A program made the translations under genes and the position numbers. A DNA stretch of 64,000 nucleotides from Naegleria gruberi. Its lineage: Eukaryota. The stretch lies in the NCBI GenBank assembly GCA_000004985.1, contig GG738891.1; one strand, given 5' to 3'. Below, piece after piece: positions 1 to 63,049 of this stretch (position 1 is the stretch's first letter; the number at the start of each line of letters is the position of its first letter). The notes beneath the pieces are model-generated. The model saw only the letters and a program-made list of their open reading frames with translations. It ran no database searches and was not told the origin of the DNA.

Positions 1-1250
1 CCTACTAAATTGGTAGAGTTTGGAGCCCGCAATTGAACAACCAGACTATTTTCATTCATTCCATCAATATATTTTCCAATCACAGCAACATGATGTTTAA
101 AGTATTGATCTCCAACACGAGAGGATGCTAGATTCATGGCATCTACAAGTTTTGGATTGGATTCAGAGAGTGGCTTCATTCTACTCTTTGTTAAACTTGA
201 CAATACAATTCCATTAACACAAATCAATGCCACAAATTTTTCCAAATCATTTCCCTTTGTGAACATGTTGGTAATGTCGTTCTTGTATGTTTCATCCTCG
301 AGAAAATGTTGAAGTAAATGTTTGTTTGCAAAAAAGTGAGAAAGTAATGAGAGTGATCTCTTTTCTCTCAAAACAATAGCTCTAGTTTGATTCATGTCAG
401 GAGATTTTTGGAATCTGTCAGCAGTACTGACCTCTCTTGAAGATTTACTAGCAAGAGCGGCCAATTCCTCAAAAGAAATGTGAGCTGATGTACTTTGGAA
501 TGCCTTAATATTATCAATCACAATTCTAATAATATTAAACTCCTTGGTTTGAGTTGAAGCCTTGTAGAAAGTCTCTGCCAAACGGGGAGGAGAGCCAGCC
601 TTGAAAATTAATGACATGAGCTCTAAAGCAGGTTCACTAAGATTATTATTCTTTGAGAGGGATAGCTTGAAAATATTCTTGACAAAGTTCTATATTATTA
701 TTAATTTCACGAAATTTCTCACATTTCAACATACCTGATTGTAAAATTCCTCCATAGCAATTCTTTCCTTCAATAAAGTTTTGATATCAGTGAGGAGAGA
801 AACAATTCTAGCCTCATCTGTTGCAGACAAGTCGTCCTCATTGAAATTTCCTTTCGACATCCATTCAAAGTACTCATTCTCTCTAATTGTTACTTGAGCC
901 TTTTCCAATAGATATTTAATACCATACCAAATACAAGTAAAGACAACACCAGTTACGATAGTGCTTGGTCCTGATGATTCTTGTTGATTTGATTGAGTAT
1001 TATATTCGGAATATTCTTCTTGTTTTTGTTCTTGTTGTTGTTGTTGCTGTTGTCTAAAAAGCCTTTCCTTTTCCCTTTCGTAGGCTTGTTGTTCTTGATC
1101 ATTTTCAAACATTCTAGAAAGTAATTTTGCATTACTAGTTCCCAACATTCTAAAATGTTCCTTTCCGATATTAATCATTGTTTTCCTATTATTCACATTT
1201 CTATTTACAAAATTAACAAGTGAACGACTCGATAAAACACTTCTTTTCAT
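1..1250 (-). CDS. Hypothetical protein, 5'-complete, 3' end runs off the window. Exon 1 is 735..1250, intron 690..734 (45 nt, GTATGT...AG), exon 2 is <1..689.
   Basis: The ATG at 1250 sits in an A-rich context. Exon 1 encodes a Q-rich stretch and ends ...EEFYNQ immediately followed by GTATGT on the minus strand. After the AG at 690 the frame stays open for ~690 nt to the window edge (…NFVKNIFKLSLSKNN…GKYIDGMNENSLVVQLRAPNSTNLV). No family recognised. Confidence 0.5.
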
Positions 1251-1661: not shown

Positions 1662-4149
1662 ATGAACGATCAACTACCATCCAAACCATTCACTTCCTCC
1701 ACGACAACTACCACGAGTGCTCTCTCCATTACTTCATCATCATCGGCGGCTACGACCACCACCACCTCTGGATCATCTTCTTCGAATAGCTATAGCAATC
1801 AGTCAATGATGTTCACACCATCGGGTCCAACAAGGACACAATCAGCAGGCAATTTTCAAGAAGGTTTTCATGTTGGTGGTGATTATGGTAGTGGTAACAA
1901 CAATGGAGTCACAAGGGCCACTTTTACATCATCCACTAGTGCTAATAATATGAAAGCACCCTCTCGTTTACCAACAGGAAATATCAATCATCAAAATATA
2001 CCAACACCAAATTTCTTCTCGTCAACCATTCCGACTGGCAGCCAGTTTGTTCCTCACACTCAACAAATGTTTATGACAAATAATGAAAAGATTGAAAGGT
2101 TAATCAAGACTACTTTCCAAACACAACAATTGGGACTTACAAAGACAATATCTTTCCTTCATAATATTTGTGGTATTGAAGAATCATATCAACAGAAAAT
2201 TGCCACTGAATGTGCAAGTAGTAATTTTGAAGTGCATTTTCCTGGTGAAATAGGACAAGTACTTGCTTCTTGTCGTTCCTTCTTTTATAAGAATGCAAAG
2301 AGCTCTGAAAGATTTGCTCAAGATGTGAAAACTTGTCTCTGTGACCCTCTATCACAAATTAACAAGGATATTTCGAAAAAGAAAAAGATGATTACCCAAA
2401 CACACGAAGCCATTTGTAAATCCCATCAAAATTCACTCAGTCAGCTTCAAAGTAAGAAGAAAACAAATGAATCAAAGAGACAAAATTTGGAAAATGCAGA
2501 AAAGAAATGGAAAATGTCTCTTGCTCAATCCCAATCCGAAAAAACATCAGCAAAGGAATCATTTTTCAGTTCTTTAATCGATCGTCAACTCAATCCTGAA
2601 CAGACCAAAGCCAAATGTACGTATATGTTTTCACAATATCATTTACATTGTTTTTAAAGACGAACAAAGCTTGGAAGAATATTCCGAGAGTGAAATCGAA
2701 CTTCAACAAACTAAACAAAAATACGAGACACTGGTAAAGACAACACTTCATCCACAATGTAAAACAATTGCTGAAAAGACAGCTGAACAATATGTTGAAA
2801 CTGGAACAATTCTTCATCTCTATATTCAACATTTAACTAAATTATTAGAAGCAAGAGTTACAGAAGCTCAAAATAATTTGGCAGCTTTTAGAGAAATTGT
2901 TGACGGTATGAATGTCGAGGATATTGAACAAACATTGGTACAATTAGATGCCACACTCGATGAAGAACCAAAAAAGAAACGAGAAACACCTTCCCCTAAC
3001 ACTACCTCCCCACATTCAGAGAGACCAAGACCAAGTAATGCGACTCCAATTTTTTCTGTATATAGCCAAGAACGAGATGAAAATACTGTCTTTTTTGATG
3101 AAATGCTTAGTGAAATTATTACAATGGATGAGAGTGATGAACCAAGTTTCCACAAATCACCAACCACTTCACCTATCTCACCATCCAATGATGCAAGAAC
3201 TTCACTTCCTATTGATGAAGATCAATCATTACCGAATCAAGAAAACCCATCATCTGAAGATCAAGAGCAACCTTCATCTCCAAGTCAAGAACAAGGTACT
3301 CTTGGCTCTCCAATAGAAGAACCAAGCGAGCCAATTATTCCTAAAAAACGACCAACCATACACAAAGAATCAAATGTAGATAACAGCCCACAATTTGTAA
3401 AATATATGAACAGACTTACACAAGCTAAGGAAAAAATCAACACATCAGAAGAGTGCAGAATTGCATTTTGTAAAGTACTCAACCAAAAACGATCCAAAGC
3501 ATGCTTTAAGAAATTCTTCTACTTCCAAGATTTGGCAGAGCTCATTGGAGATTGTTTGAGTTTGGCCCACACACAAAATGATAGAAATGTTGGAAGATTA
3601 TTGCTTAACATGACACAAACATTCTACTATTATGGAATAGACTATCCTCCACTTGAAGAAGAAAAGGACAAACCAAAAGAAAAGAAGAAAATATTTGTCT
3701 ACTCTATTTTGGATGATATGCCATGCTGGCAAGATTTGAGATTTTGGGAATTTTGTTTATATGACGGTCTCAACACTGAGAAACTTAGTAGAGTTTCAAA
3801 TAATAATACCGCTCTGACAGAGGAACAAATGCAAGCAGAGCATGAAAATATAGTCTTTGGATTATTGAGCAGTTTTTGCTTTACAATGAATGAAATGCAC
3901 ATTCCACAGGACATTATCAGAAAGTTTGCAGAAAAGATGTGTGATATTAACTCTCTAAATGAAGATTACAGAACCATGATCATGTCTGTTGTTGCCCCTG
4001 AAAACAATGAATCTTCTGAACCAGAACACCATGTGAAAATGTCTCGATACAGATCCAAACGTCAGGGTGTTCTCATGACTGACGAACAATTATCTCAACT
4101 TCGAAATGATATCCGAAGGGAAAGTATTGTTGACATTAATGATGAATAA
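1662..4149 (+). CDS. Coiled-coil protein with an N-terminal S/T-rich region and a possible BAR/F-BAR-like helical domain. The two listed ORFs are joined by a 43-nt intron (2617..2659, GTACGT...AAAG).
   Basis: ORF 1662..2657 ends ...NPEQTKAK followed by GTACGT. ORF 2671..4149 is in frame +1. A phase-1 splice at 2616/2660 gives ...KAK-Y-EQSLEEYSESEIELQQ..., an uninterrupted coiled coil. The C-terminal ~250 aa is a conserved-looking alpha-helical domain of unknown family. BAR-like assignment is weak. Confidence 0.55.
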
Positions 4150-4232
4150 TTTTCCACTACTCCAATTTTTCACACAATAAATTCGAACATGAAATAGCAC
4201 ATGTCACACCATATGATAAACTTTACAATAAA

Positions 4233-12956: not shown

Positions 12957-15194
12957 ATGATGATGAACAGAAATAATTCAATTCTTTCCTACAGTTCGGA
13001 ATTTCATCATTATTTCGAATCAAGAGTGGGGAGTCTGCTCACTCTCGATCAAACCTTCCCAGCCAAATATTTAGCAAGTGATCAATATTTCGATGATAAG
13101 CCAACTCATTCCTTGATTACTTTACAAATAATTCCGAATTTAATTAATAATAGTAATGATGATGACGATGATCTGGTTGGTGATCAAAGAGGAGATGAAT
13201 TTACCATCATGATGAAGAATCGAGTGGAAAAGTACATTCAAGCAAGTAGGAAATTTAAGAATAACATTCCCTTGATGAAGTGCTTTGAAGAGGTGACTGA
13301 TGGTGGATCTACATTGACTTTACATTTGTGTTCCTTTCCATTCAATTTGAAAATTCAATCGGAAATGAATAACATGAGGATGATTAAGGAAGTGTTTCAT
13401 AGGAGAGAAGATTTGATAACTTTGGAAAAGTATTTGGAAAGTAACTATTCACTGGAGAATGATTATGGAATGTTGATTGGAATTTTACAGGGTTTGGCAA
13501 AATCTCTATTTGAGTTGCACTTCATTGGTAAATTGAGCCATAATAGTATTATACCAAGGAATGTGGTAATTTCAAGGAAGAATTCAACAGCTCTGATTGG
13601 ATTGCCATCGTTTGGATTGGATGATGTGGTTGGAACGTTGAATGATGAGCATTTGACCTATTTTTCACCTCAAGTTTTGGAAAGATTTGAAAATGGAGAG
13701 AAAACAGTCTTTTCCAATAGTAATGATGTATACATGTTTGGTACATTGATTATTAGGATATTATTGGGCGAGGAGTTTGATGCCAAGTATTTGGACACTG
13801 AACGAATGGATGGGGAATTGAAGGATTTGAAATCAAGAATATTGAAACAGCTCACTAATAATATGCCAATGAGGGAAATCTATGAAAATATAGCAGATAT
13901 GGCATTCAGATGTATTGACAGAAATGAATCTAAACGACCTTCAATAGCTGAAGCGTTTCAACTATTGGAGAAACAAGAACCAATAATCATCCTGCCATCT
14001 TCCGAGTCTGCACTTATCTCAAATTCCAGTTCTGAAACCCCAACTTTTACCGTATCCTCACGTTCATTCAATACCTCAAAATTTTCGCTATTTTCTAACC
14101 TTTTTGGAGTCAAGAAAAAGGACCGAGTGCCATCTTTAAGAAATGATGTGGTAAATGATGTATGTGATGACATATCAACAATTGAAAGTTTACCAATTAT
14201 TGTTCAGTGTGAAGAAAAGAAACTAGATGAAGAAGAAACAAAACCAGTGGAGAATCCAGAAGATTTGGATGAGGAAAAGAAGAAACTCTACATTATTGAT
14301 AAGAGAATTAGTGAGGGAGCTTCTGCTGTTGTGTTCACTCTCAAGAGACCTTCCGAATGTGTCATGAAGAGATACAAGAAAGGTCACGAATCGGATTACA
14401 AGAGAGAAATTAGATGCCTACAAAAACGTCATCAGAATATTGTTACCTTAATAGACAATTATTCATTTAAGGAAGGAGAAAATTTTAATCATGTAATTAT
14501 TATGGAATATTGTGGATATGGAGATTTGTATCGATTGGTATCAAGTAGTGTACAGAAAAGTGCAATCAAACCAATTGTAAGTTTTGTAATGGAAAGTTGT
14601 TTAAATGGAAAACAACAACATTTTAAAATAGAAATTCCTAACAATGGGTATTCAATTATTTGAGGCATTGTGTCACCTCCACTCTAACCAATATGTACAT
14701 TGTGACGTTGTAAGTTTCTTAAACCTTCTTAAACATTCTAATATTCTTTTAAGAAACCTGTAAAGCTTGGCGACTTTGCATTTAGTGTGAGAAATGGAGA
14801 AAGTTCACCAGGATTGACGTTCCACTATGCACCTCCTGAGCTTCATGAAGGAAAACCAGCCATCATTGAATGTGATGTTTACAGTGCTGCTTGTTCTCTA
14901 TTCGAAGTACTTGTAAAGAAGAAGGTTAGTTTGAAAGATAAGGATTTCACACAGGTTTGGGATCAACACAATGCCAATACTAGATTCTATTCCAGGACCA
15001 TGTCTAATCCTCATGCCATTAGATTGTTCAATCTGATGAAAGAATGCTTGGAGCCTGATGCGAAAAATCGATGCTCTTCAAAGAAGGTCCTTTCTGAAAT
15101 GATAGATATTCGAAACAATTTTTGTGCAACCCTTATTCAAAAGATATTTAGAGGATTTAGAGTAAGAAAGAGCCTTAAAAGAAGAATGAATTAA
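12957..15194 (+). CDS. Tandem pseudokinase + atypical kinase domain protein with a C-terminal IQ motif. Three exons: 12957..14576, 14632..14709, 14754..15194. Introns 14577..14631 (55 nt) and 14710..14753 (44 nt).
   Basis: Exon 1 ends ...SAIKPI followed by GTAAGT. The 78-nt middle exon encodes KFLTMGIQLFEALCHLHSNQYVHCDV (kinase subdomain VIb with HCD instead of HRD). Exon 3 begins KPVKLGDFAFS (DFA instead of DFG) and ends with the IQ motif LIQKIFRGFRVRK. The N-terminal domain is kinase-like but lacks catalytic residues (HNSIIPRNVVIS, LPSFGL). All junctions are phase 0 and in frame. Confidence 0.65.
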
Positions 15195-17713: not shown

Positions 17714-18975
17714 CTATTCACAATTCATATCAAAGAATATATCTGAAAATGCACTTCTCCTTTCCCTCAAATTGCCAAAGAAATAGTCAAAATCTTTTGT
17801 AGAATTAATACGTCTTACGGCCATAAAATATAACTCATCAGAACCAAGCAACACAATAGTGTCATCATTTAGCTCATAAACTACCTTGCCATGAAATGTC
17901 GTGTATTGACGTTCTAATTCTTCTGGAATTGTGTAATTGATGAGCATTCTCTCATTCTTATCATATTCATATATCTTGAAGACATCGTTATCACCGTAAA
18001 GAATGAGAAAACTTTCACTTGTTAGATAAGGTTTGTTGGCTCCTCTCAAACAAATGCTCCTTGAGTATGAAGAATAACCATTTGTTTTAAGTAATTCAGA
18101 AACGGGTGTGCTCCACTCTCTAGTATTGAAATTAAAATCATGTAGGGCTGTTATATAACCAGTTGAATCATATCCACCAAATATTGTAATTCCATTTTCA
18201 GATATATAGGTATTAGGAGTAATAACTGTTAAGGTTGGGACTTTATGTGAGTATTTCGGCTGTGTCCATTCTCTAGTTTCCAAATCCAACTCATGGAAAT
18301 CATTCAAGTACGTTCCACAATACCCTCCATATACATAAAACTTTCCTCTACTCGAATATACAGCCGAACATCCACATCTTTTGCAAGGGTTTCCCTTTGT
18401 TACAATATTGGTCCATACTTTAGTTTGCAAATCAAAAGTCCACAAGTCATCCAAATGACCAATCGTATTAACATGTCCTCCATATAAATATATCAATTGA
18501 TGTTGTTTATCATATGAAATACATGGATATTCTCTAGCACATGGTTGGTCAGCTCCATTCGGAATAATTTCCTTCCAGACCAATCCTTCCTCTACTTTAA
18601 ATCTTGGATTTGATGGCAATTCCAAAATTACAATCTTATTATTGTGCGATCTTGAATTTGTCTCAGTTCCTTATCAAAATCAAATAGTAAATTATTCAAT
18701 CACGTGAATGATTTCCAAATCAACATATTAAATATATATTAATATAATCATCGCGATCAAAATTATTACACAATATTATAATTATTATTATTATTACTAA
18801 TATTAAAATACAAACCTCCAAACATGAACAAGATCGGAGAATGTGTCAATACATTCTCTGATCCCAATAACAATGAATGAAAATTTTCGGTCGGTTGCAA
18901 ATTGTGTTTATAATGGTGATACCAACGAATGGGTTCTTCGGTGGTGTGAATGTTTGTATTGTTTTCCTTCTTCAT
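17714..18975 (-). CDS. Kelch-repeat protein with 2 exons. Exon 1 is 18806..18975 (ATG at 18975), intron 18586..18805 (220 nt, GTTTGT…AG), exon 2 is 17714..18585.
   Basis: The Kelch ORF (17714..18625) has no in-frame ATG; TAA lies 18 codons upstream of its TTG. Upstream ORF 18766..18975 starts with ATG and ends …HSLLLGSENVLTHSPILFMFGG, a Kelch-blade ending, immediately followed by GTTTGT. A phase-1 acceptor at 18586/18585 restores FMFGG-LVWKEIIPNG…, with following blades LIYLYGGH…DLWTFDL and KFYVYGGY…FHELDL. Exon 2 boundary ±3 nt uncertain. Confidence 0.55.
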
Positions 18976-22386: not shown

Positions 22387-23871
22387 TTAATGGGAAATGT
22401 AAGCAGCAGCTTCAAGGAATTGATCAAAAGAGAAGGTTGCTTGTCCAGTACTTTGCTTATCAAATAATTGGAATGAGTTTCTACAAATTCCAATAAAGAT
22501 AGTGAAATCAATATATTCAGCAAAGGAGAATGTACCTTGTTTGTCCTTATCAAAATTCTTGAACAATCTGTCAAGAGCAGATGGAGAAACTTGAACTCCT
22601 GAATATTGAATTGCTGTCTTGACTTCGTTCAAATCCAAAGTTCCACTTCTATTAGTATCAGTCTTTTCAAAAGCATTCTTCATGTTCATTAAATAATAGT
22701 GCAATTGTTCAAATTCATGGAAACCAATTTGACCAGAATTATCACGATCGAACATTTTGATCATCTTTTGAGTAACACTCTTATCAAAGACCATACCACC
22801 CTTTGACAAAACAGTTGATAATTCTTCAGCTGAGACTTGTCCGGACTTGTCAAGATCAACAGCATCGAACCAAGCCTTGAGTTGAGGATTTGGTTGAGTT
22901 TGTTGAATTGGCATGAATTGATTTTGACCTGGTTGTGGTTGTTGTCCAGTTTGACCTGGTTGTCCATATTGTGGTGGAACTTGACCTGGTTGTCCCACTG
23001 GTTGTTGACCAAATTGTGGTGGTTGTTGGCCAAATTGTGGTGGAACTTGACCTGGTTGTCCGAGTTGTGGATTTTGAGGTGGAACAGATGGTTGGCCATA
23101 TTGTGGGTTTTGACCTGGTTGTGGTTGTTGACCATATTGTGGTGGAACTTGACCTGGTTGTCCGAGCTGTGGATTTTGTGGTGGAACAGATGGTTGTCCA
23201 AATTGAGGATTAGTTGATGGAGGAACTTGTCCCATTGGTGGTTGTTGACCTGTTGGTGGAACTTGACCTGGTTGACCATATTGTGGATTTTGTGAAGGAA
23301 CAGATGGTTGACCATATTGTGGTGGTTGTTGTCCAGTTTGACCAGGTTGAGGTGGTTGTTGACCAAATTGTGGGGAAACTTGACCAGTTTGACCATATTG
23401 AGGTGGAACTTGTCCTGGTTGTCCCATTGGTGGTTGTTGTCCGTATTGAGATTGATTCATTGGAGGAACAGATGGTTGACCATATTGTGGATTTTGAGAT
23501 GGTGGAATTGGTGAGCTACTAACTGGTGGAGTAGTTTGACGAGGAACTTGTCCCATAGGTGGTTGTTGACCATATTGTTGAGGAACAGATGGCTGACCAT
23601 ATTGTGATTGTCCCATTGGAGGTTGTTGGCCGTATGGTGATTGTCCCATCGGTGGTTGTTGTCCATATTGACCATATTGTGATTGTCCCATTGGTGGTTG
23701 TTGACCGTATGGATGTTGTGGTTGGCCGTATGGAAGTTGTTGACCATATTGACCTCCGTATGGCGGTTGTTGTTGTTGACCATATTGACCGTATGGTTGT
23801 TGTGAAGAAGGAGGTTGTTGACCGTAGCCTTGAACTTGTGGTGGATGTTGACCGTATGGAGGTTGACTCAT
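22387..23871 (-). CDS. Penta-EF-hand (PEF; ALG-2/peflin-like) calcium-binding protein with a ~320-aa N-terminal P/Q/G/Y-rich repeat domain.
   Basis: C-terminal EF-hand loops DLDKSGQVSAEEL, DRDNSGQIGFHEF, DTNRSGTLDLNEV, DKDKQGTFSFAEY, followed by the PEF dimerisation tail. The N-terminus is (Q)YGQQPPMGQ… / QYGQPSVPPQNPQ repeats. ATG in AAAAATG context. Confidence 0.8.
   Translation of the reverse strand: MSQPPYGQHPPQVQGYGQQPPSSQQPYGQYGQQQQPPYGGQYGQQLPYGQPQHPYGQQPPMGQSQYGQYGQQPPMGQSPYGQQPPMGQSQYGQPSVPQQYGQQPPMGQVPRQTTPPVSSSPIPPSQNPQYGQPSVPPMNQSQYGQQPPMGQPGQVPPQYGQTGQVSPQFGQQPPQPGQTGQQPPQYGQPSVPSQNPQYGQPGQVPPTGQQPPMGQVPPSTNPQFGQPSVPPQNPQLGQPGQVPPQYGQQPQPGQNPQYGQPSVPPQNPQLGQPGQVPPQFGQQPPQFGQQPVGQPGQVPPQYGQPGQTGQQPQPGQNQFMPIQQTQPNPQLKAWFDAVDLDKSGQVSAEELSTVLSKGGMVFDKSVTQKMIKMFDRDNSGQIGFHEFEQLHYYLMNMKNAFEKTDTNRSGTLDLNEVKTAIQYSGVQVSPSALDRLFKNFDKDKQGTFSFAEYIDFTIFIGICRNSFQLFDKQSTGQATFSFDQFLEAAAYISH
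22900..23870 (-). repeat. Imperfect in-frame tandem DNA repeat encoding the PQY-rich domain of the PEF protein. It creates spurious overlapping ORFs on both strands.
   Basis: Recurring units such as ggtggaacttgacctggttgtcc and ccatattgtgg at roughly 60-100 nt periodicity. The six-frame track shows ORFs 22761..23396(-), 22837..23217(+), 22935..23213(+), 23214..23522(+), 23308..23514(+), 23457..23783(-) and 23559..23906(+) all inside it. Confidence 0.7.
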
Positions 23872-24028: not shown

Positions 24029-25199
24029 TTAGATTTCTTTTGAGGAGTAATAATTGTGGAGGAGAGGTTGTAACATTTTTCGAGAGGAGGCCATGTTGTG
24101 CTGTACAAAGTATTTGGTGTTTTCGGAATCTTGTTCTGCTTTCCAGTGGGTGAGGTTCAATTCTGATGAACATTGATGAACCAGATGATTCACAGAATTG
24201 CTCAATAACTTTTGATTAGGTGTGTATATTACAAGTTGTCTCTTGAATTGATTTTCCTCATCACTGTAGGCACACATCACATAGAGNNNNNNNNNNNNNN
24301 NNNNNNNNNNNNNNNNNNNNNNNNNNNNNNNNNNNNAGTCTTGTGATTCAACTTGGAAACTTAAATCTCTCAAAGAATAACTTTTCGAATAATTCCTCTC
24401 TTTGTTTCTGTTCAAAGCTGAGAAGGGCTAAGAGTCGGAGAGCTTGTTTCTCATCTCTTGGTGTTACTTTCTTGAATTTTGGCTCTAAATTCATAGTGTC
24501 GAGAAGGATGGTTCCAAGCAAGGCTTCACAACATTCTCTATCTTCTCTGAGCATGTCGTCACTCAACAATTCAGCTACCAAAGTACATGAAGATCCAATC
24601 AGATCGATAATTCTTCTCTCCGAAGGAATGTCATAACACTTCTCATCAACGTGATGATCAATAATTTGATAGACAAAGTTGCCCAATAGTGGTTCTTGTT
24701 CTGGAGTTAACTTGTTGTGATCTGTGAGAATGACTTGCAGATTATTCTCCTTTCCTAAGCTTTCTAAAACATCAATAAGAGTTGGATTTTGATGATAAAA
24801 GATTAAATCCTCTCCACTAATACCAAACTTTTCCAAGAACCAAGTAGCATCCGTTCTCAAATTGTATTCATCGGCTGGAATATTAATAATAGGAATGGAG
24901 GTAATCTTGTCTCTCTTATATTGAGCATAGGAAAAGACAATTGATGAAACTATAGAATCCAAATCACTAGCTAAGAAAGAATTCGATGATAATTTAATCC
25001 AATTTTTACACAATATTCACATTTGATGATTAATATTAAATTAACAATTAAAAATTATTAAAATTCTTCTCAACAACAACAAACCTTGATTTCCGAGACA
25101 GATTGCCAAGGTGCCACCATTAAAGGTCTTGTTTGTTACAAGATCTTTACAGGATCGCAAAAAAGACTTCATCAGTATTTTTTTAGTGAAGTTTTCCAT
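24029..25199 (-). CDS. DHH-family phosphoesterase (exopolyphosphatase PPX1 / prune-like), interrupted by assembly gap 24287..24336. Exon 1 is 25085..25199 (ATG 25199), intron 24971..25084 (114 nt, GTTTGT…TTCTTAG), exon 2 runs from 24970 downward.
   Basis: DHH motif ILTDHNK…IIDHHVDE. Reconstructed exon 1 (MENFTKKILMKSFLRSCKDLVTNKTFNGGTLAICLGNQ) plus the phase-1 splice gives …ICLGNQ-A-SDLDSIVSSIVFSYAQY…, matching the PPX1 N-terminal pattern (…[24 protein letters not shown]) as recalled from memory. ORF 24029..24415 downstream of the gap looks like the DHHA2 C-terminal region. Confidence 0.7.
24287..24336. other. Assembly gap (50 N) inside the PPX1/prune-like gene.
   Basis: Run of n characters. 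Confidence 1.
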
Positions 25200-27105: not shown

Positions 27106-30100
27106 TTATTGAATGTTACAAATTTGAGATTGGTTCTTTTCTCCCTTTGATTTCTTTCCACTCTTTGGAGGAGGAACACTATCGTCCAAAGCATTAGAAA
27201 CTTCCTTAACAGCAGTCTTTGTCAAAGATCTAGCCTTTCTCATCATGGCATCGAAATCATTGTCAGAATCAGAATCACTGCTGCTTCCTGAATCACTGTC
27301 TCCAACAAGATCATCAAATTCGGAGAGAATTTCCCTAGCTTTTTGCTTAGAACTGATAGCAGCAATATCTTGTTCAAGTTTCTTGATATTCTTCTTGAGT
27401 TTTCTGTAATACTTTGAACCGACATTGGCCTTACCAGTCTTCTTAACTCTTGAACGCAAAGATTCATTTTCAGCCAAAGCAATGTTAAGATCAACAATCA
27501 AGTTTGTCTTTTCGCTGGTTAATTGTTGATTAACTTGCTCCAAAGTTGTAATCTTTTCCTTCAAAACTGATGGATCAACTACAGCAGCTTCAACATTAGC
27601 TTCAACAGTCTTCAATGAAAGGAATGGATCAGCAGAGTTATCAACATAATTTCCATTCATTATAGCCAAGTGGAAGCTTCTCAATTGATTCAATCTGGTT
27701 TCAAACATATCACGAGTCCATGTTTCAGAGTGACCAGTTTCAAGATCAGTAACTTCAACTTCAATTTGAGAACCGACAAGTTTAAGATCAATAGCAATAC
27801 TTCTCTTAAGTTCAGCTACCATGATAGAAGCTTCTTGAATCCAAGGAACTAATTGAGAAACTGAATCGGTACTAGCAGAGGAGGCAATAACAGTTGTCTT
27901 TACAGCTTTTTCTATGATTATTTGGGACTTTTCAGCCATTTCTTGTTGAAGTCTATTTTCCATATCGAACAACTTCATAGACATTTCCAATTCCTTTCTT
28001 TGGAAGTCTCTTTCCTTTTCTTCCTTTTCTAATTCAATCAATCTCATTTGTTCTAACATTGCCTTAGTGTCCTTTTCGGCATTAAGAAGAAGTTCACTTT
28101 GCTTAAGAGCTAAGGATCTTGCCATTTCTTGTTGTTGTCTTTCCATTTCAACCTTTTGTCTTTCGATTTCTTCTTGTTGTGCCATCTTTTCTTCCAAATA
28201 TTGTTGCTGGAGGAGAGTAAACTTTTCTTCTGCCTTTGTGGATGCTGAAGCAGCAACTGTATTTGATTTTTGGATTTGAGTCTTGAAAATAGCTCTTACA
28301 GCTGTCATCTTGAGTCTGTTGTCACTTAACTTTCTTTCATAATCTTCTCTTTCCTTTTCCAATTGCTTTTGATTTTCTTGCTTGGCAGAAACGAGTTGAT
28401 TTCTGAGTTGATTGACTTCTTCTTCACTAGCTCCAGATTCAATCTTAGCAAGGAGCTCTCTTTCCTTAGCTTGGAAAGAACCAACCAATTCCTTTTCTCT
28501 CAACATGAACTTTTCCTTTTCTCTTTGCATGATGTCTTCATGTTCCTTATTCTTTTTTGTCATTTCTTCTTCAACCTTTGAGAGTTGTTCTTTATACTTT
28601 CTAGCTTCTTCTTCAGCTTGTTTTGATTTTTCTAACTTTTCCTTGAGAACAGAAACTTCAGAGTTGATTTGGACTCTGATTCTTTCTTCAGATTGAGCAA
28701 ACATTTCATTTTGAGCCTTGATAACACCGTCAATTCTTTCCTTTTCCTTCTTCAATTCTTCTTCATATTTGGAAACGAGAGCACCATTGTGTTGGTTCTC
28801 AGAAATCAACTTTTGAATTTCAAGTTCTCTTTGTAATTTTTCATCAACTAAAAGTTGCTCCTTCTTTTGCAAAAAGTCCTTTTCTTCGTTGATCTTTTTT
28901 TGATATTCAGCTTCCTTTTCCAAGATCTTTTGTTGCAAAGCTTGATTTTCCTTTTCTAAATCTTCCTTATGCTTCTTTCCAATGTTAATTTCAGCCATAA
29001 GCTTGGATTCAAGTTCCATGATTTGCTTTTGGTATGATGAAGAAATATTCATCTTGGAAGCTTCCAACTCTCTTTGGTACTGCAAAACTTGTTCTTCATT
29101 CTTTTTCTTTTCAGATTCCAACATTTGTTCAATTTGCTTTCTTCTTTGTTCGTCATTCTTGTTTTGCAACAATTCAGCTTGCAACAATTTTTCCTTAGTA
29201 GCATATTCAGCTCTGAGTAAATCTTCTCTCTTCTTGGCATTTTCCATTTCTTGTTGAATGAGATCCTTTTGGGCTTGTCTTTGCTTTTCAATTTCAGACT
29301 TGACACTGTTGATGGTTTCTTGCATTTCTGTTTCTCTCTTCTTATGTTCTTGAACAAGTTGGTTAGTCTTTTCATCAATCAAATTCTTACTGAATTCATC
29401 CCATGCAAGTTTCCAATCAGAGTTGTTAACAGCGCCTTCACTAGGGTTATTGTATTGATAGATCAATCTGGAACCGATAACAAGTCTGTCTCCATTCTTG
29501 ATCTTTGTCTTTTCCTTAATTTCTACACCGTTAACATAAACTTTGGCATTTTCAGATGGAGTGATAAAACCGGCAGAAATTGTGGCATGTGAGTCTAAAA
29601 TACCAGCACCTTGAATTCTGACAGTGTTTCCTTCAGCAGCACCAATATTTGTTGGTTCTTGAACATAATAGTTAAGTTTTCCACTCAACAATGGATCTTC
29701 ATTAAGGTTACTAATATGCAACTTGTTCTTATCGAAATCAAGTTCAACATTCATTTCCTTGAAAAATTCTTCTCTCTCCTTTGCCATTTCTTCAGTTCTT
29801 TTAATCTTTTCTTCGGTGGTCATTTGCATTTCAGTGATAAGCTTTTGGGAGGCATCTAATTGCTCCTTCAACTTGTCATACTCTGCTTGGGCAATTCCTC
29901 CAGGAACTCCAGTAGAACCCTCAGTATTTTCTCCAGCAGGAACAATACCCTTACCAGCAAGTTGATTCTTCAATCTTTCAACTTCAGCTCTCAATTGACT
30001 GATAATCTTGGCAGAAGGATCTTCGTTAACAATAGCCTTGTTGACAATTTGTTTAGCTCTGTCAGCATATCTGAGGGTTGAGAGAGATTCATCATAGTTG

Positions 30101-31246
30101 ACATCAGCAGGAGAAATAGCAGCAATCATAATAGTTCTAGAGTTACCACCCAAAGATTCCTTAAGAAGGTGAGTTAACTTGGAATCTCTGTATGGAATGA
30201 AGGCAGTAGAGTTTTTTCCTGTGCACTTATCAGCAAGAGCCTTAATAACATTACCCAAAGAGGTCAATGAAAGGTTAATGTTAATACCTTCTTGAGCTCT
30301 AGCACCAGTAGCACCAGTTCTGGCCATTCTTTCGGAACCTGCCAAGTCGACAAGATTGATGGAGGAAACCTTTTGAACTTTTTGCTTTGTTTCAGGATGT
30401 TGAACGGTTTGCTTTACATATAAAATAAAAACGGTGTGAGCTCTAGATGATGTCTTATTCATGGCAGTAGCACCAGTAGTTCTAGCATCTTCACCTTGCT
30501 TCAACAACTTTAAAATTTGATCCTCTCCTTGAGCAACGTGCTTTGACAAACCCTCTATGATTTTTTAAATATTCCTCAATAAGATCCAACAATAAATTCT
30601 TCACTTACCAATATAGACACCTGTTTGTGGATTTTCTCTGATTTTTAGACCACCTGTTGGATTGTTCTTTGGATTGAAAAGATCCTTAATTTCTTCGTTA
30701 TAAATTTCCAACATGGAGGCTTCAACACCATATTCAATAGGAACTGTGTTTTGAGACTTTGATTCTTCAATCTTTTGGAAAATACGCTTAGAAGCCATAG
30801 TGACTAAACCTTCATCCTTTCCTGGATAACCAATCATACTGTATGATTTACCAGAACCAGTTTGACCACTATTATTATTGTTGTTTAAATACAAATTATT
30901 CTCAACAATTTAACACTTACTAGGCAAACATGGAGGTGTTGTATCCTTGCCAACAGTTAGCAAGCATAGATTCTCCCATATCATTCCACAGAACTTTGTT
31001 ATCAGCAAAGTTGGCATCAGCGCTATTAAAGCTCCAATAAGAATAGTCAAAAGTAAATTTGTTTTCCTTTCCTGAGGCAGGATCGCTTTTCCCAAGTCAA
31101 TACAACCACAATTTCCTAAAAATTACTTACACCAAGATGGTCTGTGGACCATTCATTTGTACAATACATTTTGATTTACCTTCAATTTCGTAATCCTTGA
31201 ATGGTCTTACTCTCACAGCAACCTTAACTGAATCAGCTGATGACAT
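27106..31246 (-). CDS. Kinesin-3 family motor (Unc104/KIF1-like) with FHA domain and long coiled-coil tail. Four exons: 31131..31246, 30921..31085, 30609..30868, 27106..30554. Introns 31086..31130 (45 nt), 30869..30920 (52 nt), 30555..30608 (54 nt).
   Basis: Exon 1 [39 protein letters not shown] followed by GTAAGT. Exon 2 [54 protein letters not shown](Y). Exon 3 [11 protein letters not shown]…[34 protein letters not shown](E). Exon 4 [11 protein letters not shown]…SSRAHTVF…[10 protein letters not shown]…[23 protein letters not shown]…[10 protein letters not shown], then FHA (…[33 protein letters not shown]), then coiled coil. Junction phases are all consistent (2, 2, 1). No PH domain at the C-terminus. 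Confidence 0.9.
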
Positions 31247-35370: not shown

Positions 35371-37029
35371 TTATTCCTCTTCCTCATCCACTACACATGC
35401 ATCATCGCTTTCATATCCACTTGTTGATTTTCTTGGCATACGATTACCAATAGTGCTCTGGAAACGAGGAGCATTTGGATTTGGGAGTGGTCTCCTAGAA
35501 TCACGAACAACAGCTCTCTTTCTAACTGGTATTTTGATTTTCCTCACTGTTTGTCCTTCATTGTCAACTTCTGCTGTTTGTTGTTGATTCACTCCTTCTA
35601 CTGTATTTGCTGTTGGTTGTTGACTCATTTCCTCATCACTATTCGATTTTACATCTTCCGTAGTATCGTATTGTTGTGGAGATTCTTGACGTTGATCAAC
35701 AACTGCTTGTCTTTGTTTTGGTGAAATATCCATAACTTCCATCACTGGAGGTTCTGTTAGATAAGTTTGTTTCGAATTATTCATCTCCAAAGGATTCAAC
35801 AAAACAGGTGGTTGATTAAACGAGGTTTGTGGAGAAGTAGGAGTTGGCAATGCTTTCAAATACCCACTATGTGTCTTTATGCCATTGTGTGGTGTTGTAC
35901 TAATTTGTGGAGGTGGTGCCTGTTTCTTCACTGGTTTATCCCAAGTTGTCGTGCCAGATTGTGCATGATGATAATAGTACTGATTGCTTCCGTAATCGTA
36001 GTAAGCTACCCAACCCTCTTCCAATTGTTCTTCCTGTTGTTGTTGTTGTGTTGTACTAGTAGTTGTTGTTGTAGTTGTTTGTGTGTTGGAAACAGTTGCA
36101 GTTGTTGAGGCAGTTGTTGAAGAAGAAGACGAATTATTGGAAGTGTTTGATGAGGATATTGAGGATGCTGATACTGATGATGATGATGATGTACTGCTGC
36201 TATTATTTGATGATTCATCATCTCCGAATATAGAATGTGCTTCAGCAATCAGGGTTGTCATTAAATTACTAGAATATTTGGAATCCTGGAGAATTTCCAT
36301 GTGACTTTGAGGAAGATCTGATTTTAACAAGTTAGGAGCAAAAACAATGGCCAAATTACTTGGCGACATTTTGTTAATACTTGAATTTGCAGCAACTTTC
36401 TTCAAGAATAAACATAAATTCTTTAAAATTGTAAAGTTTGTGGGTGGAAGAAACTTGATTACTTTTTGAATCATGACCAATCTTTGTTCTTCATCAGGAA
36501 TTCTCTGAATATTTGTGAATTTCATGAATAATTTTCATTTGAATTATATTTTCGAAAGTCAAATGATTCGAATAAGATCTAAAAACAAGTCTAAATAACA
36601 TACCTCAGCTGCCAAAAACATTCCATACTGTTCATATGTCAATAAAGGATCCATCAATTCTCTCAAATACAATTTCAGTAAACTACTCGCCAAGTGAATT
36701 TCATATTTCTCATACGGAACATCAAATTTAATATTTTGCTCTAATTGTTGAATGACTTCATCTTCATCTGATTTTTTAGGTGAAATTCTAAAGATACCTT
36801 CAATCTTTAGTCCATTTTCGTCTAGATAGGACATGGCTTTTAATACGAAAGGAGGTAAATCATTTGGATCGAGTGGAAGTTTCTTTGCAAAAACTTTGGA
36901 ATTTGCAAACTTTTCATTGGTTGGGAATTTTTGTGAACCTGGTGAGTTAGCAGCAACTGGTGATGATGGTGAGTTGGAATTGGTTGGTGGAGATGTCGAT
37001 TTCTTGTTATTCTTTTTAAAGATTTTCAT
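35371..37029 (-). CDS. RhoGAP-domain protein with a C-terminal WW domain. Exon 1 is 36604..37029, intron 36505..36603 (99 nt, GTATGT…TATTCAG), exon 2 is 35371..36504.
   Basis: ORF 36559..37092 carries the RhoGAP N-half (…GIFRISPKKSDEDEVIQQLEQNIKFD…HLASSLLKLYLRELMDPLLTYEQYGMFLAAE) followed by GTATGT. ORF 35371..36525 continues at phase 0 with RIPDEEQRLVMIQKVIKFLPPTNFTILKNLCLFLKKVA…MSPSNLAIVFAPNLL (RhoGAP C-half). WW domain EEGWVAYYDYGSNQYYYHHAQSGTTTWDKP. The start was re-anchored to the first ATG (37029) because the ORF-track start is GTG with TGA just upstream. Confidence 0.7.
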
Positions 37030-38350: not shown

Positions 38351-38793
38351 TTTTTTTTGAAATTAGAAACTTAAGTTTATGTAGTTTACAATGAAGAATG
38401 GTCCCTGCCATGAAAAATTGGATAGTAATTGCAATTGTTAGTTTTTGGAGTCATCTTAATTTTATTTTAACAAAGAAACAAAAAGACTACAGCACCACAG
38501 GTTCCCAAGTTGTCTCCAACCTCAGTACTGATGTGGCTCGACGATGCTTAACTTCTCAAATCGGACGGGATGAGGTGCATTCATCGTGATATGGCCGTAG
38601 CCATTCAATTACTAGATTTCTGAGTTATAAATCAAAGTTGCAATCAATTTATTTTCGCAACTAAGCTTACCATGCAATTACAAAATAAAGTTGATAGACA
38701 ATTGGTGAAACAGACCTGCCTTTGAAGGATGTAAATCTTTATTGATCATTCCATCAGGTCTCAAAATAATCCTACCCTGGAAAATTAAAAATA

Positions 38794-38866
38794 TGCCGAC
38801 ACCAGGGATCGAACCAGGGACCTTAAGATCTTCAGTCTTACGCTCTCCCAACTGAGCTATGTCGGC
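38794..38866 (-). tRNA. tRNA-Phe (anticodon GAA).
   Basis: Minus-strand sequence GCCGACA-TA-GCTC-AGTTGGGA-GAGC-G-TAAGA-CTGAAGA-TCTTA-AGGTC-CCTGG-TTCGATC-CCTGG-TGTCGGC-A forms a canonical cloverleaf. 7-bp acceptor, D-arm with A14/GG, anticodon loop with U33-GAA-A37, T-loop TTCGATC. It resembles canonical eukaryotic tRNA-Phe. One U·U mismatch in the T-stem (51:63). No encoded CCA. Confidence 0.9.
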
Positions 38867-47657: not shown

Positions 47658-47728
47658 TCGGGTGTGGTATAGTGGTAGCATTCCAGACTGTCACTCTGGC
47701 GACCCGGGTTCAATTCCCGGCACTCGAG
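47658..47728 (+). tRNA. tRNA-Asp (anticodon GTC).
   Basis: TCGGGTG-TG-GTAT-AGTGGTA-GCAT-T-CCAGA-CTGTCAC-TCTGG-CGAC-CCGGG-TTCAATT-CCCGG-CACTCGA-G. 7-bp acceptor stem including one G·U, anticodon stem CCAGA/TCTGG, loop CTGTCAC (GTC anticodon), perfect T-stem, discriminator G as expected for tRNA-Asp. D-stem is weak, as is typical of the GUAU-type tRNA-Asp D-stem. High similarity to eukaryotic tRNA-Asp. Confidence 0.8.
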
Positions 47729-52656: not shown

Positions 52657-54236
52657 ATGGTGAATGGAATCTTTAATAGTGGCAGAGCATCTGTCGATTT
52701 TAATTACCGTCCTGGTATGCATCGGTTTGCAGATCCTTCAATGACCAGTGACAGAATAATGCTAGGAAGAAGTCCAGGAGCTGGTTTCGGAGGCATGTAT
52801 TTAATGTCAGGTACATCAGAAATTTCTGCTTTAACAACACCTTCACAATCCACAAAAACATCTTTTGATTCGATTGGAAAAATTTGGATTAATTTAATTG
52901 AAGCAAGAAAACTTTTGGCAGCTGACGTGAATGGAACCTCAGATCCTGTAAGTTTTTGTGTATTTCATATTTAATTTTACAAATTTGATATAGTATGCTG
53001 TTATATTGTGTAGGTGTTATGAATTTTAAATTGAGTTTAATAATAATGAAAGTTGGTGATATTCAAAAAAAGTCACGTGTCATGTACCATAATTTAGATC
53101 CAATTTGGAAGGAAGAATTTTATTTTGATATTTGTGAAACGAATGAAAGTTTAAAGATTTATATTATGGATAGTGATACAATTGGTTCAGATGATTTTTT
53201 AGGATTGGTTGAAGTGCCAATCAAGTCAATTGTTGAATCAAAAAATGATTTAATAGACAAGTGGTATAAATTGAAATCTACTTCAGTAAGTTTACAATTT
53301 TTCAAATCAAATGAAAATTAACTTTCTCAGTTGACTACTCGAGTAACAGGTGAACTTCATTTGCAACTCAAATTTTTACCAAACAATGCACGTCAAGCCA
53401 TAATGTCACCAATCACGCCAATTCCAACTTATTCGGATACTGATTTATCCAGTGAACGATCCACCGATTATATGGAACAAGTAGATGATCTGGGAGCCAA
53501 TTTTTCAATGAATACTGAAAAAATGTTGAGTGACATTCATTCAGCTCGTTATTTACATTCATTTATGAAGGAGCAATTTTGTGAGGAATGTTTGGAATTC
53601 ATTTATGCAGTGGAACAATTTAGGAAAATTTATAAAAATCGACAAGTGGATCCAAAAGAATTGAAGAAGGTTGCATTTGTAGTTTATGAGAGATTTTTAC
53701 AATTTGGAAGTCCACAGGAGGTTGCAATTCCGTTCATGATTAGAGTAGAGCTACAGGACTTTTTTGAGAACAAATTGGAAGATGAGACGTCTAATATATT
53801 GTCGGTTTTAACAATTGACGTGTTCGATGAGGCTCACTCGATCATTCTTCACATGATTAAGAGTGACATTATTCCAAGATTCATGTACTCTCATCAGTAT
53901 AAGAATTGGAGTTACTCTCTCGATTGGTCTCTCCAATTCCGAATGATGGAAGAAAAGAGGAGAAAGCAAAGTTTGACCTATCTCATTGAAATGATGGATG
54001 AGAAGAGTTTGCAATTTTTAAAGAAGAGAATTATTGAGAGACAAAAGAAAAAGAATTCCTCCAATAGTACTTCTTGTAATTCTGCATTTGATGATTGTGA
54101 TTCGGATGAGGAAGGAATTTTGGAAGAATTGAATTTGAGTGATTTCAAATCAACTAAATTTTCCTCAACCCAACAAGCTCAACAGGGCCAACAACAACCA
54201 ACAATTGATATGGGAGAGTTTGTTTTAACCTTGTAA
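52657..54236 (+). CDS. C2-domain + RGS-domain protein, multi-exon. Last intron 53286..53330 (45 nt, GTAAGT…CTCAG). An upstream junction within 52950..53040 is unresolved.
   Basis: C2 N-part IWINLIEARKLLAADVNGTSDP, immediately followed by GTAAGT (52950). C2 continuation …KLSLIIMKVGDIQKKSRVMYHNLDPIWKEEFYFDI…IYIMDSDTIGSDDFLG…WYKLKSTS, then GTAAGT. Next exon LTTRVTGELHLQLKFLPNN…, then RGS box …RYLHSFMKEQFCEECLEFIYAVEQFRKI…VAFVVYERFLQFGSPQEV…DEAHSIILHMIKSDIIPRFMYS. ATG at 52657 (AAAAAAATG). Confidence 0.65.
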
Positions 54237-59826: not shown

Positions 59827-61600
59827 TTAAAGAACAGTGACAGTCTTGGCCAAATTTCTTGGTTTGTCTGGATCGTGACCACGGAGAAGAGCCAATTCGT
59901 AAGCAACCAATTGGAGTGGAATATTGGCCAACAAGGCACTGAAAATACCATTAGATGGAACATCAATAACATAGTCAGCTTCATGGGATGGAATCTTATC
60001 TGGAATATCAGTAATAGCTACAGTATAAGCACCTCTTGATTTGATTTCAGCAGCAGCTGTCATATTCATCTTAAAGTACTTGTCATCAAGAATGAAAACA
60101 AAAATAACAGTTCCTGGTTCAATAAGGGCGAATGGACCATGTTTCAAGGCACCAGATGAGTAACCTTCGGCGTGAGTGTAAGTAACTTCCTTAACCTTCA
60201 AAGATCCTTCATAAGCAACAGCTTCACCATAACCCTTACCCAACATGAAAAGAGTATTGCCCTTCATGTTATAAATATGTCTGGCAATATGTCTACACTT
60301 CTCTCTAACTCTGCTCAAAACCATACCTGCACTAGTTGGCAAACGATGGAGGTATTGAATAATGGCTTGACGATGTTGAAGTTGGAATTTTGGTGATCTG
60401 TTTTGAGCAAACCACAAACCAATCAATGCCAAAACAGTAACTTGGCAAGAGAATGCCTTGGTTGAGGCAACAGCAGTTTCACGACCAGCATTAATATACA
60501 CACCACACTTTGTAGTTCTAGCAATAGTTGAACCGACACGATTAACGCAGGAGAAGCTTGGAACGCTCAATTGTTCTGCAATATAAATACATCTCAAAAC
60601 ATCAGCTGTTTCACCACTTTGTGATAAAACCAAAAGGCCAGAATTTTCAGGGCAAAAATGTGATTCCTCAAGTTCAGCACCATCAATAACTTGGATAGTC
60701 TTGAAGCATCTCAAATCTCTGAAAATTTGAGCACCATAGAGACCAGCATAGTAACTAGTACCACAACCAGCAATAACCAAATGTTCAATACCAGATAACC
60801 ATTCCTTATTATCATCCAAACCACCCAATTTAACATGACTATCATCACTAATTCTACCACCAAAATTCAAAGATCTTGAAATTGATTCAGGTTGCTCCAA
60901 AATTTCACGAATAGTCCAGTGAGCATGTGGATGAGGAGTCTTTTCAATCTTTTCTTCTTCAACAACAATCTTTCTTTCATAAGGAAGAGTAACACCTTCA
61001 GAGGTAATGACAGCAATTTCATTATTTTCCAAACTGATCATTTCTCTAGTGTACAATCCGAATGCAGAACTTTCGGAAGCAACAAACATCTTACCTTGTG
61101 AAACACCGACCAAGAGAGGAGAACCATTTCTGGCTACAACCAAACGATCTGGTTCAACTGTAGACATAATAACCAAACCCCAAGTACCTTCCAAATGTTT
61201 AGTAGTCTTGAGAACGGCCTTTTCAACAACATCTTGCTTCATTCCATCCTTTAACATTTGGTCCAAATAGACACCAATCATTTGAACAATAACTTCAGTA
61301 TCTGTTTCACTCTTGAATTTAATTCCGTGCTTTTCTATCAATTCCTTTTTCAATTCACCAGAATTTTCAATGACACCATTGTGAACAAGAATCACACGAC
61401 CAGATTGATCCATGTGAGGGTGAGCATTCATATCAGTTTTAGCTCCGTGAGTAGCCCATCTAGTGTGAGCAATACCAATACTATCATTTCCGTGTGTATG
61501 TAAAGTTTCTCTCAATCTCTTAAGAGCATCACTTGTTGTTTGAGAACTGGCATATTTAGTTGTGTGGAAGCAAGGTTCTCCCTTATCGTTTTGTCTTAAG
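59827..61600 (-). CDS. Glutamine—fructose-6-phosphate aminotransferase (isomerising; GFAT/GlmS-type), 5'-truncated by assembly gap.
   Basis: GATase-2 region …GIAHTRWATHG…ILVHNGVIENSGELKKELIEKHGIKFKSETDTEVI…, two SIS domains (…VIAGCGTSYYAGL…, …LVLSQSGETADVL…), and C-terminus …GHDPDKPRNLAKTVTVL. The catalytic N-terminal Cys (MCGIF…) and ~60-80 residues are missing. The frame runs into the N-run at 61601/61614. Confidence 0.9.
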
Positions 61601-61613
61601 NGTTGCAATACCT

Positions 61614-61663
61614 NNNNNNNNNNNNNNNNNNNNNNNNNNNNNNNNNNNNNNNNNNNNNNNNNN
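61614..61663. other. Assembly gap (50 N; an additional single N at 61601). It hides the divergent 5' ends and shared promoter of GFAT(-) and IDH(+).
   Basis: Run of n characters flanked on the left by minus-strand GFAT codons and on the right by plus-strand IDH codons. Confidence 1.
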
Positions 61664-62737
61664 GAAGATGTGGAAGTCACCAAATGGTACTATTAGAAAC
61701 ATTTTGGGTGGTACTGTCTTCAGAGAACCTATTGTTATTGAAAACATTCCAAGATTAGTTCCTGGATGGACTCAACCAATTGTTATTGGTCGTCACGCTC
61801 ATGGTGATCAATACAAGGCTACTGACTTGGTTATTGGCGAACCAGGAAAGATGGAACTTGTTTTCACTCCAAAGAATGGTGGTGAAACTCAAAGATACAC
61901 TGTCTTCAACTTTGAAGGTTCTGGTGTTGCTATGGGAATGTACAATACTGATGAATCTATCAGAGATTTTGCTTACTCATGCTTCCAATTGGCTGTTGAC
62001 AAGAAATGGCCATTGTACTTGTCCACCAAGAATACCATCTTGAAGGCTTATGATGGTAGATTCAAGGATATCTTCCAAGAAATCTATGAAAAGGAATTCA
62101 AGACTAAATTCACTGAATTGGGTATCTGGTACGAACACAGACTTATTGATGACATGGTTGCTCAAACTTTGAAGAGTTCTGGTGGTTTCATCTGGGCTTG
62201 TAAGAATTATGATGGTGATGTCCAATCCGATATTGTTGCTCAAGGTTATGGTTCTTTGGGTTTGATGACTTCTGTCTTGTTGTGTCCTGATGGTAAGACT
62301 GTTGAAGCTGAAGCTGCTCACGGTACTGTTACTAGACACTACAGAGAACACCAAAAGGGTAAGGAAACCTCCACCAACCCTGTTGCCTCCATCTTTGCTT
62401 GGTCTCGTGGTTTGGCTCATCGTGCTAAGCTCGATGGTAATGCTGAATTGGCCAAGTTCTGTGATGCTTTGGAAGCTGCCACTATTGAAACTATCAGAGC
62501 TGGTAAGATGACCAAGGATTTGGCTATCTGTGTTCACGGAAACAAGTAAGTTTTTTCACACACGACAGATTTTCTAATTATTATTTTATTATTAATTATT
62601 TGATATTGTGATGATATTAATATTGAAAATTTGCATGATTATTATGGATAAACAGTGTTGATCGTTCTCAATACCTCAACACCAATGATTTCATGGCTGC
62701 TATTGATGAAACTTTGAAGAGTAAGCTCGGATTGTAA
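61664..62737 (+). CDS. NADP-dependent isocitrate dehydrogenase (IDH1/2 type), 5'-truncated by gap. Exons 61664..62545 and 62656..62737. Intron 62546..62655 (110 nt, GTAAGT…AAACAG).
   Basis: [23 protein letters not shown]…[13 protein letters not shown]…[25 protein letters not shown]…[13 protein letters not shown]…[20 protein letters not shown] matches eukaryotic NADP-IDH almost residue for residue. The last exon, joined at phase 2, gives …[33 protein letters not shown], the typical IDH C-terminus. The first ~100 aa are missing. Confidence 0.9.
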
Positions 62738-63049
62738 GCATTTAATTCTTGATCACATTCTTTAATTCAAAAAGATTAAATTTACCAAAACAACGAGCAT
62801 CCAAACTGTAATAAAAAAGTTTAAAAATCCCTCCGAATCATGGACAATTGAGATGATCATCCTTCCCTTGTAATTTAAATTTATTTATTCTCCACCATTA
62901 TTTGTAAATTGTTAATCCTAGAATTTAGTCAATTAGTATTAAATAGTATTATTGAAATTTGTTCTTAGTTCTTTTTCAAAGGAATATCAAATTATTAATT
63001 ACAACCAATTAAAATCTAAATAATTAAAAACAGTTAAAAAAATCGAAAC

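Follow-up and report, generated by a model that had tools for sequence, protein, structure and literature searches.

The first exon of a PPX1-like DHH phosphoesterase gene in Naegleria gruberi and its GTTTGT splice donor

The 64,000-nucleotide (nt) stretch of Naegleria gruberi contig GG738891.1 (assembly GCA_000004985.1) that we analysed, hereafter the window, has a G+C content of 34% and two small runs of N, and contains on its minus strand an open reading frame (ORF) for a DHH-family phosphoesterase resembling yeast PPX1. The locus raises the question of where this protein begins and, if it begins in a separate upstream exon, whether the hexamer GTTTGT that follows this exon can serve as a splice donor. 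An initial annotation, made from the sequence alone, had proposed that such an exon is hidden from gene finders and that the same donor is used by a Kelch gene nearby. The exon finding is correct and ordinary, and matters for little more than tidy annotation: the public gene models of N. gruberi and N. lovaniensis already include this exon, its intron and the GTTTGT donor.

Structure and conservation of the DHH gene junction

The downstream DHH ORF opens with a TTG (25013) that is preceded by TGA-ATA, and contains no ATG upstream of the catalytic motifs; the statement that it lacks an ATG of its own at the start therefore stands. The elements that surround the junction are as follows (a slash marks the exon-intron boundary).

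25085..25199, minus strand: coding part of exon 1 of the DHH/PPX1-like gene, 115 nt, with the ATG at 25199; 38 codons and the first base of an Ala codon
25079..25084, minus strand: GTTTGT hexamer of the 5' splice site, in the exon context CAAG/GTTTGTTG
24971..25084, minus strand: GT-AG intron of 114 nt, phase 1, with 19% G+C versus 36% in each flanking exon
24971..24981, minus strand: 3' splice site with the pyrimidine-rich tract TTCTTTCTTAG
24348..24970, minus strand: exon 2 as annotated, with the motifs DLD, DHN, DHH and LLDT, and a TGA at 24350..24348

Exon 1 ends with CAAG at 25085 and GTTTGT follows directly at 25084..25079, while the intron ends with TTTCTTAG at 24971 and exon 2 begins with CT AGT GAT TTG GAT at 24970. 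The junction codon G/CT specifies Ala, the spliced product reads ...TLAICLGNQASDLDSIVSSIVFSYAQY, and the frame is open from the ATG. The 38-codon ATG exon, the CAAG/GTTTGT boundary, the intron length and its phase are found exactly where they had been placed. The acceptor AG is preceded by the T-rich TTCTTTCTTAG, and no branch-point motif common to the five orthologous introns described below could be seen by eye; a second AG, 4 nt past the acceptor, would on a by-eye reading of the sequence shift the frame into a stop if used. The U12-type donor consensus, /(A or G)TATCCTT, is not matched by GTTTGTTG. The DHH intron is very probably a U2-type GT-AG spliceosomal intron of the ordinary kind, located close to the 5' end of NAEGRDRAFT_71532, the gene for a DHH/DHHA2 phosphoesterase of yeast PPX1 type. 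The primary transcript would thus carry a 115-nt coding exon 1 (with its ATG at 25199 or possibly at 25172), the AT-rich intron and exon 2. Removal of the intron would complete the Ala codon and rebuild the conserved N-terminal strand together with metal-binding motif I (...C-L-G-N-Q-A-S-D-L-D-S...), and every catalytic motif would then lie downstream of a proper start codon.

The resemblance of the spliced N-terminus to that of PPX1, which had been pointed out originally, is borne out by alignment. Yeast PPX1 (PDB 2QB6) is the best solved-structure match of the spliced product (expectation value, E, 3.3e-22), with query residues 11-210 aligned; the exon-1 peptide aligns to PPX1 residues 9-38, and the residues laiclgnqasdldsi are paired across the junction. 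The motifs SDLDS, TDHN, IDHH and LLDT line up with PPX1 motifs I-IV (DxD, D, DHH, D) and with the orthologs. The Pfam DHH profile (PF01368) scores 29.6 bits when exon 1 is included and 26.6 bits when it is left out, the gathering cut-off being 28.1 bits. The N. gruberi protein thus has in common with Saccharomyces cerevisiae PPX1 (2QB6, 2QB7 and 2QB8; DHH and DHHA2 domains) the N-terminal pattern and the DHN, DHH and LIDT motifs. It differs in that the sequence identity is low and the DHHA2 part is separated from the rest by an assembly gap, and its enzyme activity and substrate are predicted only.

The evidence that carries the junction is comparative. The N. lovaniensis ortholog (P0003; locus L001, GCA_003324165.2, PYSW02000039.1) has 384 amino acids and a gene span of 1325 nt, which requires one intron of 170 nt. 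The intron that reproduces this protein is CAAG/GTTTGTTG...AAATTATTAG/CA, with a GTTTGT donor and the same codon phase as in N. gruberi. Three further contigs from metagenomes and the Sequence Read Archive, L003, L004 and L005, carry DHH relatives at 88%, 69% and 61% identity. The orthologous introns outside N. gruberi are the following.

L001:10080-10249: N. lovaniensis, 170 nt, GTTTGT donor
L003:4-190: metagenome contig, 187 nt, GTTTGT donor
L004:2871-3010: 140 nt, GTATGT...CAG
L005:913-949: 37 nt, GTAGGT...CAG

The intron position and phase 1 are common to all five Naegleria-lineage loci (N. gruberi, N. lovaniensis and L003-L005), with intron lengths of 37-187 nt. Splicing yields ASDLDSI at L003, L004 and L005, and ...C(I or L)GNQASDLDSI... 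is found in all four loci that hold exon 1, the L003 contig beginning 3 nt before the donor. The introns of N. lovaniensis and L003 are like that of N. gruberi in position, phase, GTTTGT donor and TAG end, whereas those of L004 and L005 are unlike it in the donor, GTATGT and GTAGGT respectively, and in ending with CAG. Willaertia magna, the nearest outgroup found, is intronless at the junction: its contiguous GGAAATCAAGCAAGCGATTTAGAT encodes GNQASDLD and matches spliced Naegleria, and a three-way alignment of the DNA shows the Naegleria introns as a single clean gap against the Willaertia coding sequence. An alignment of the N-termini of eight homologs is likewise continuous across the junction. 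The Willaertia gene (L002:10001-11238) does have another intron, of 62 nt with a GTAAGT donor, about 590 nt into the gene. Compared on its own with the Willaertia ortholog, the 38-residue exon-1 peptide gives an E of 4e-6 (a single comparison), with residues 10-38 aligned. We infer that the junction 25085^24970 is in use in vivo. The orthologs, the intronless Willaertia gene and the public model agree that the upstream exon with its ATG is part of the PPX1-like gene and is spliced at this junction, as had been proposed.

In a protein search and by exact look-up, the spliced DHH product agrees at all 245 of 245 residues (100% identity) with XP_002673388.1 / EFC40644.1 / UniProt D2VRC0, a 'predicted protein [Naegleria gruberi]' of strain NEG-M whose locus is NAEGRDRAFT_71532 on a 339-kb scaffold. 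Because the proteins are identical residue for residue, the public ATG, donor, acceptor and stop are the same as those proposed. The first exon and its splice have been in the public N. gruberi model since 2010, and the Kelch GTTTGT intron is likewise in XP_002673386.1; the exon was never hidden. The related expectation that gene finders would miss GTTTGT introns does not hold for the pipelines behind the N. gruberi and N. lovaniensis records: the former found both GTTTGT introns, and the N. lovaniensis annotation includes the intron of the DHH ortholog. It does hold for intron-naive callers, which give a false TTG start on L003 (MDSIVSS...), a false ATG start within the intron on L004 (MTPASDLDS...), and a read-through of the 37-nt intron on L005. 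Intron-naive or prokaryote-style calling on environmental Naegleria contigs systematically drops exon 1, and the DHH score then falls under the Pfam threshold.

Alternative readings of the start codon and the 3' end

Several points weigh against the gene structure described above and have to be set beside the comparative evidence. The public model is a prediction, and identity to it is no proof of splicing. Nine of the 11 introns placed in the window use GTAAGT or GTATGT, unlike the DHH intron. Nine codons at the start of exon 1 are possibly untranslated, given where the orthologs start, and further downstream a frame shift and an assembly gap interrupt the gene, so that this copy is not demonstrably intact from the assembly alone. 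The features concerned are listed here.

25172..25174, minus strand: second in-frame ATG (MKSFLRSC...), which aligns with the start codons of the orthologs and is a possible true start
24360..24361, minus strand: probable 1-nt assembly indel; ...FFERF and VSKLNHKT... lie in successive frames, orthologs having FERFNVSKLSSHD (three-frame translation)
24287..24336: assembly gap of 50 N inside the DHH gene
24029..24286, minus strand: C-terminal coding part (DHHA2 tail ...QHNMASSRKMLQPLL...), open frame to a stop at 24029, outside the public 245-residue model

It could be argued that exon 1 is spurious and that the protein begins in the second ORF with a non-ATG start, or from another upstream exon. 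Prokaryote-style callers did give such models on related contigs (P0002 from a TTG, P0004 from an intronic ATG), but these models drop the ...C-I/L-G-N-Q... strand that is kept in all full-length homologs from Willaertia to yeast, and the exon-1 peptide is on its own significantly similar to the intronless ortholog; we consider this exceedingly unlikely. A far more serious alternative retains the same splice and has translation begin at 25172 and not at 25199, either because the transcript starts between the two ATGs or because the first ATG is skipped. The N. lovaniensis protein begins at a Met aligned with N. gruberi Met10, it and the L004 and L005 proteins begin with MKAFL... at the equivalent position, and that of Willaertia extends a few residues upstream of Met10. 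No ortholog has an equivalent of the nine extra residues, MENFTKKIL, and PPX1 aligns from residue 11 onwards. The true start may be 25172, since the orthologs begin at the aligned Met and the first nine codons are unmatched. On the other side, the public model uses 25199, which is the first AUG of the open frame, two stops (TGA TAA) lying four codons upstream of it. We give the start at 25172 a chance somewhat short of even.

The last alternative concerns the 3' end and would have the exon-intron structure be the relic of a decaying pseudogene. In its favour are the frame shift at about 24360 with the premature TGA at 24350..24348, and a public protein that ends at 245 residues without DHHA2, whereas the orthologs are 380-390 residues long and possess this domain. 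However, the frame slips by one base only 24 nt short of the 50-N gap, and the consensus beside such gaps is typically of poor quality; the catalytic motifs are all intact, and the DHHA2 tail beyond the gap is an open frame with a proper stop. No second copy of the DHH family was seen in the window, and each of the related genomes examined has an intact ortholog. The post-gap tail resembles the C-termini of the orthologs P0003 and P0006, and those orthologs that have DHHA2 carry PF02833; the 85-residue post-gap fragment alone gives zero Pfam matches, the middle of the DHHA2 domain falling in the gap. We find a pseudogene highly improbable. An assembly indel adjoining the gap appears to be the most economical reading of the sequence, and the terminal TGA of exon 2 is probably an artefact. 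The corrected frame should run FERFNVSKLNHK... into DHHA2 and the protein should be about 380 residues long. The public DHH model is, on this reading, incomplete, the gap-adjacent frame shift cutting short a DHHA2 protein.

The DHH gene is adjoined at 22387-23871 (minus strand) by a single ORF with Gln/Pro/Gly/Tyr-rich repeats followed by an EF-hand-like C-terminus (PEF). The neighbour of the N. lovaniensis DHH gene likewise carries EF-hand Pfam matches. The 494-residue product of the N. gruberi ORF, taken as a single exon, has no exact match in the protein collection, and the public model must differ from it.

GTTTGT as a splice donor

The second GTTTGT intron of the window lies in the Kelch gene, whose structure we find to be the following.

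18816..18975, minus strand: Kelch exon 1, with the ATG at 18975; ends with ...FMFG and a G, and aligns to the homolog P0152
18670..18815, minus strand: Kelch intron, 146 nt, phase 1, GTTTGT...TTGATAAG, 17% G+C; the spliced model matches the public protein
17714..18669, minus strand: Kelch exon 2, starting with GA ACT GAG..., stop included

The claim that this gene uses a GTTTGT donor is upheld, with its coordinates and its acceptor revised. The sequence at 18805..18800 (minus strand), where the donor had been placed, is TAATAT, and the GTTTGT lies 10 nt off at 18815..18810, so that exon 1 ends at 18816 and not at 18806. Possible in-frame acceptors are found at 18670, 18595, 18592 and 18586, the last being the one chosen originally, with exon 2 from 18585. 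By exact look-up only the model with 18670 (371 residues, exon 2 from 18669) matches a public protein, XP_002673386.1 / EFC40642.1, a kelch repeat-containing protein. The G+C content is 17% over the 146 nt to 18670 and an exon-like 32% over the next 84 nt. The 435-residue homolog P0152 (E 3e-66) is continuous across the junction, SLLLGSENVLTHSPILFMFGG/TETNSRSHNNKIVILELP in the spliced model versus SLLLGSENVMTHSTILFTYGGEHIPSRIENENIYILKLS in the homolog. The 28 residues that are lost with acceptor 18586 are present in P0152 and are therefore part of the protein. The Pfam profile PF24681, which gives 166 bits for the shorter model and 153 bits for the model with 18670, is non-discriminating here. 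An exon 2 starting at 18585 is not supported; the exact public match, the step in G+C content and the alignment to the homolog all favour 18669.

GTTTGT is a used splice donor, as had been maintained, in two genes of the window, DHH and the corrected Kelch gene, and both introns are in public models. How common it is can be estimated from the 11 introns that we could place in the window, of which seven have GTAAGT, two GTATGT and two GTTTGT; such donor samples are small, and those introns that are unmatched to public models carry a modelling risk. Exact matches to public models were obtained for three of the 11, those of the DHH, Kelch and RhoGAP genes, the last being the following.

36603..36505: RhoGAP intron, GTATGT donor, exact match to XP_002673390.1

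Another seven, all with GTAAGT, were placed by domain continuity (three in a kinesin gene, two in a kinase gene, and one each in an isocitrate dehydrogenase and a C2-RGS gene), and the intron 734..690 (GTATGT) was placed by ORF joining only. In the N. lovaniensis locus of 21 kb, seven introns are annotated: three with GTAAGT and one each with GTATGT, GTATGA, GTACAA and, in the DHH gene, GTTTGT. No GTTTGT donors were found in the Willaertia locus. As raw hexamers on both strands of the window, GTTTGT occurs 66 times, GTAAGT 21 times and GTATGT 18 times. The GTTTGT hexamer itself is uninformative, because only 2 of its 66 sites in the window behave as donors. A scan for ORF-joining GT...AG pairs returned 400 donor positions with a maximal hexamer enrichment of about 2.4-fold and was too noisy, and the donor screen finally used combined ORF ends and the drop in G+C content at each site with tests of domain continuity. 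A candidate intron at 4124..4197, suggested by ORF adjacency, was dropped, the downstream ORF having a plausible start of its own. The literature searched yielded no usable consensus of Naegleria 5' splice sites, the Entamoeba study cited below being the one relevant find.

In the standard model of 5' splice-site recognition, U1 small nuclear RNA (snRNA) pairs with CAG/GUAAGU. With AAG/GUUUGU, pairing would be possible at positions -2, -1, +1, +2, +5 and +6, with a mismatch only at +3 and +4; AG precedes both GTTTGT donors (CAAG/ and GGAG/), which would fit compensation through exonic pairing. From sequence comparison, GTTTGT is a used but minority donor, of the canonical GT-AG type with unusual +3 and +4 positions, and does not appear to be a new splice-site class. 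No snRNA gene, and no match to U1 in particular, was found in the 64-kb window.

A system that relies on the same hexamer exists in Entamoeba, where 88-90% of introns begin with GUUUGU and U1 carries the complementary ACAAAC (bioRxiv 10.1101/2022.06.08.495308, citing Davis et al. 2007). The likeness to Naegleria lies in the hexamer being a functional donor of short AT-rich introns that end with UAG. The difference is that GUUUGU predominates in Entamoeba, whereas in Naegleria it is in the minority among mostly GTAAGT and GTATGT introns. Naegleria lacks the defining feature of the Entamoeba system, because GUUUGU is not the predominant donor (2 of 11 introns in the window and one of seven at the N. 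lovaniensis locus). The GTTTGT introns could still form a functionally distinct, selectively kept subclass, whether through regulated retention, stronger pairing with U6 or a variant U1 as in Entamoeba. In favour of this, N. gruberi, N. lovaniensis and L003 all retain the hexamer at the DHH intron, and the Entamoeba case demonstrates that a splicing system based on GUUUGU and a co-evolved U1 is feasible (bioRxiv 10.1101/2022.06.08.495308). However, the same intron has GTATGT in L004 and GTAGGT in L005, so the hexamer is exchangeable; its usage in the two loci counted above is low; and two of the three loci with GTTTGT are closely related, so that shared ancestry explains the retention. We regard such a subclass as improbable. 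Its narrower form, a small GUUUGU subclass retained at particular introns and read via a variant U1 or as weak sites of regulated retention, would be a little less probable still. Positions +3 and +4 of the donor seem simply to drift, to judge by the GTATGT and GTAGGT found at this intron in other Naegleria lineages, and this one orthologous intron with GTTTGT, GTATGT or GTAGGT is a small illustration of free drift at these positions within Naegleria.

Other genes in the window

Some of the genes that supplied GTAAGT introns deserve a brief description. The protein-kinase gene at 14577-14753 (plus strand) has its catalytic-loop region (...LHSNQYVHCDV) in an exon of 78 nt, 14632-14709, which is flanked by GTAAGT introns of 55 and 44 nt. 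When this exon is included, two Pkinase fragments (63.8 bits) become a single 90-bit match; an exact look-up of two variants of the kinase model gave no identical public protein. The kinesin gene at 27109-31246 (minus strand) has three introns of 45, 52 and 54 nt, each with GTAAGT, and its spliced motor domain matches Pfam Kinesin over 1-327/327 in one stretch (E 3.6e-103). The 1329-residue kinesin model has no exact public match, and the public model differs from it somewhere.

The C2-RGS gene at 52948-53072 (plus strand) has a GTAAGT directly after ...GTSDP without a good in-frame acceptor, and its first intron is unplaced: with four different GT...AG pairs the C2 domain scores between 66.8 and 73.3 bits, and an exact look-up of seven full models gave no public match. 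The gene for an NADP-type isocitrate dehydrogenase at 61560-62740 (plus strand) is interrupted by N at 61601 and at 61614-61663, and has an intron of 110 nt (62546-62655, GTAAGT...AACAG) before a short last exon; with this intron removed, the Iso_dh match reaches profile position 345 of 348 instead of 333.

Among the genes for structural RNAs, a 5S ribosomal RNA gene (38484-38602, minus strand, 105 bits) has a tRNA gene (38794-38866, minus strand) about 190 nt away, and a second tRNA gene is found at 47658-47728 (plus strand).

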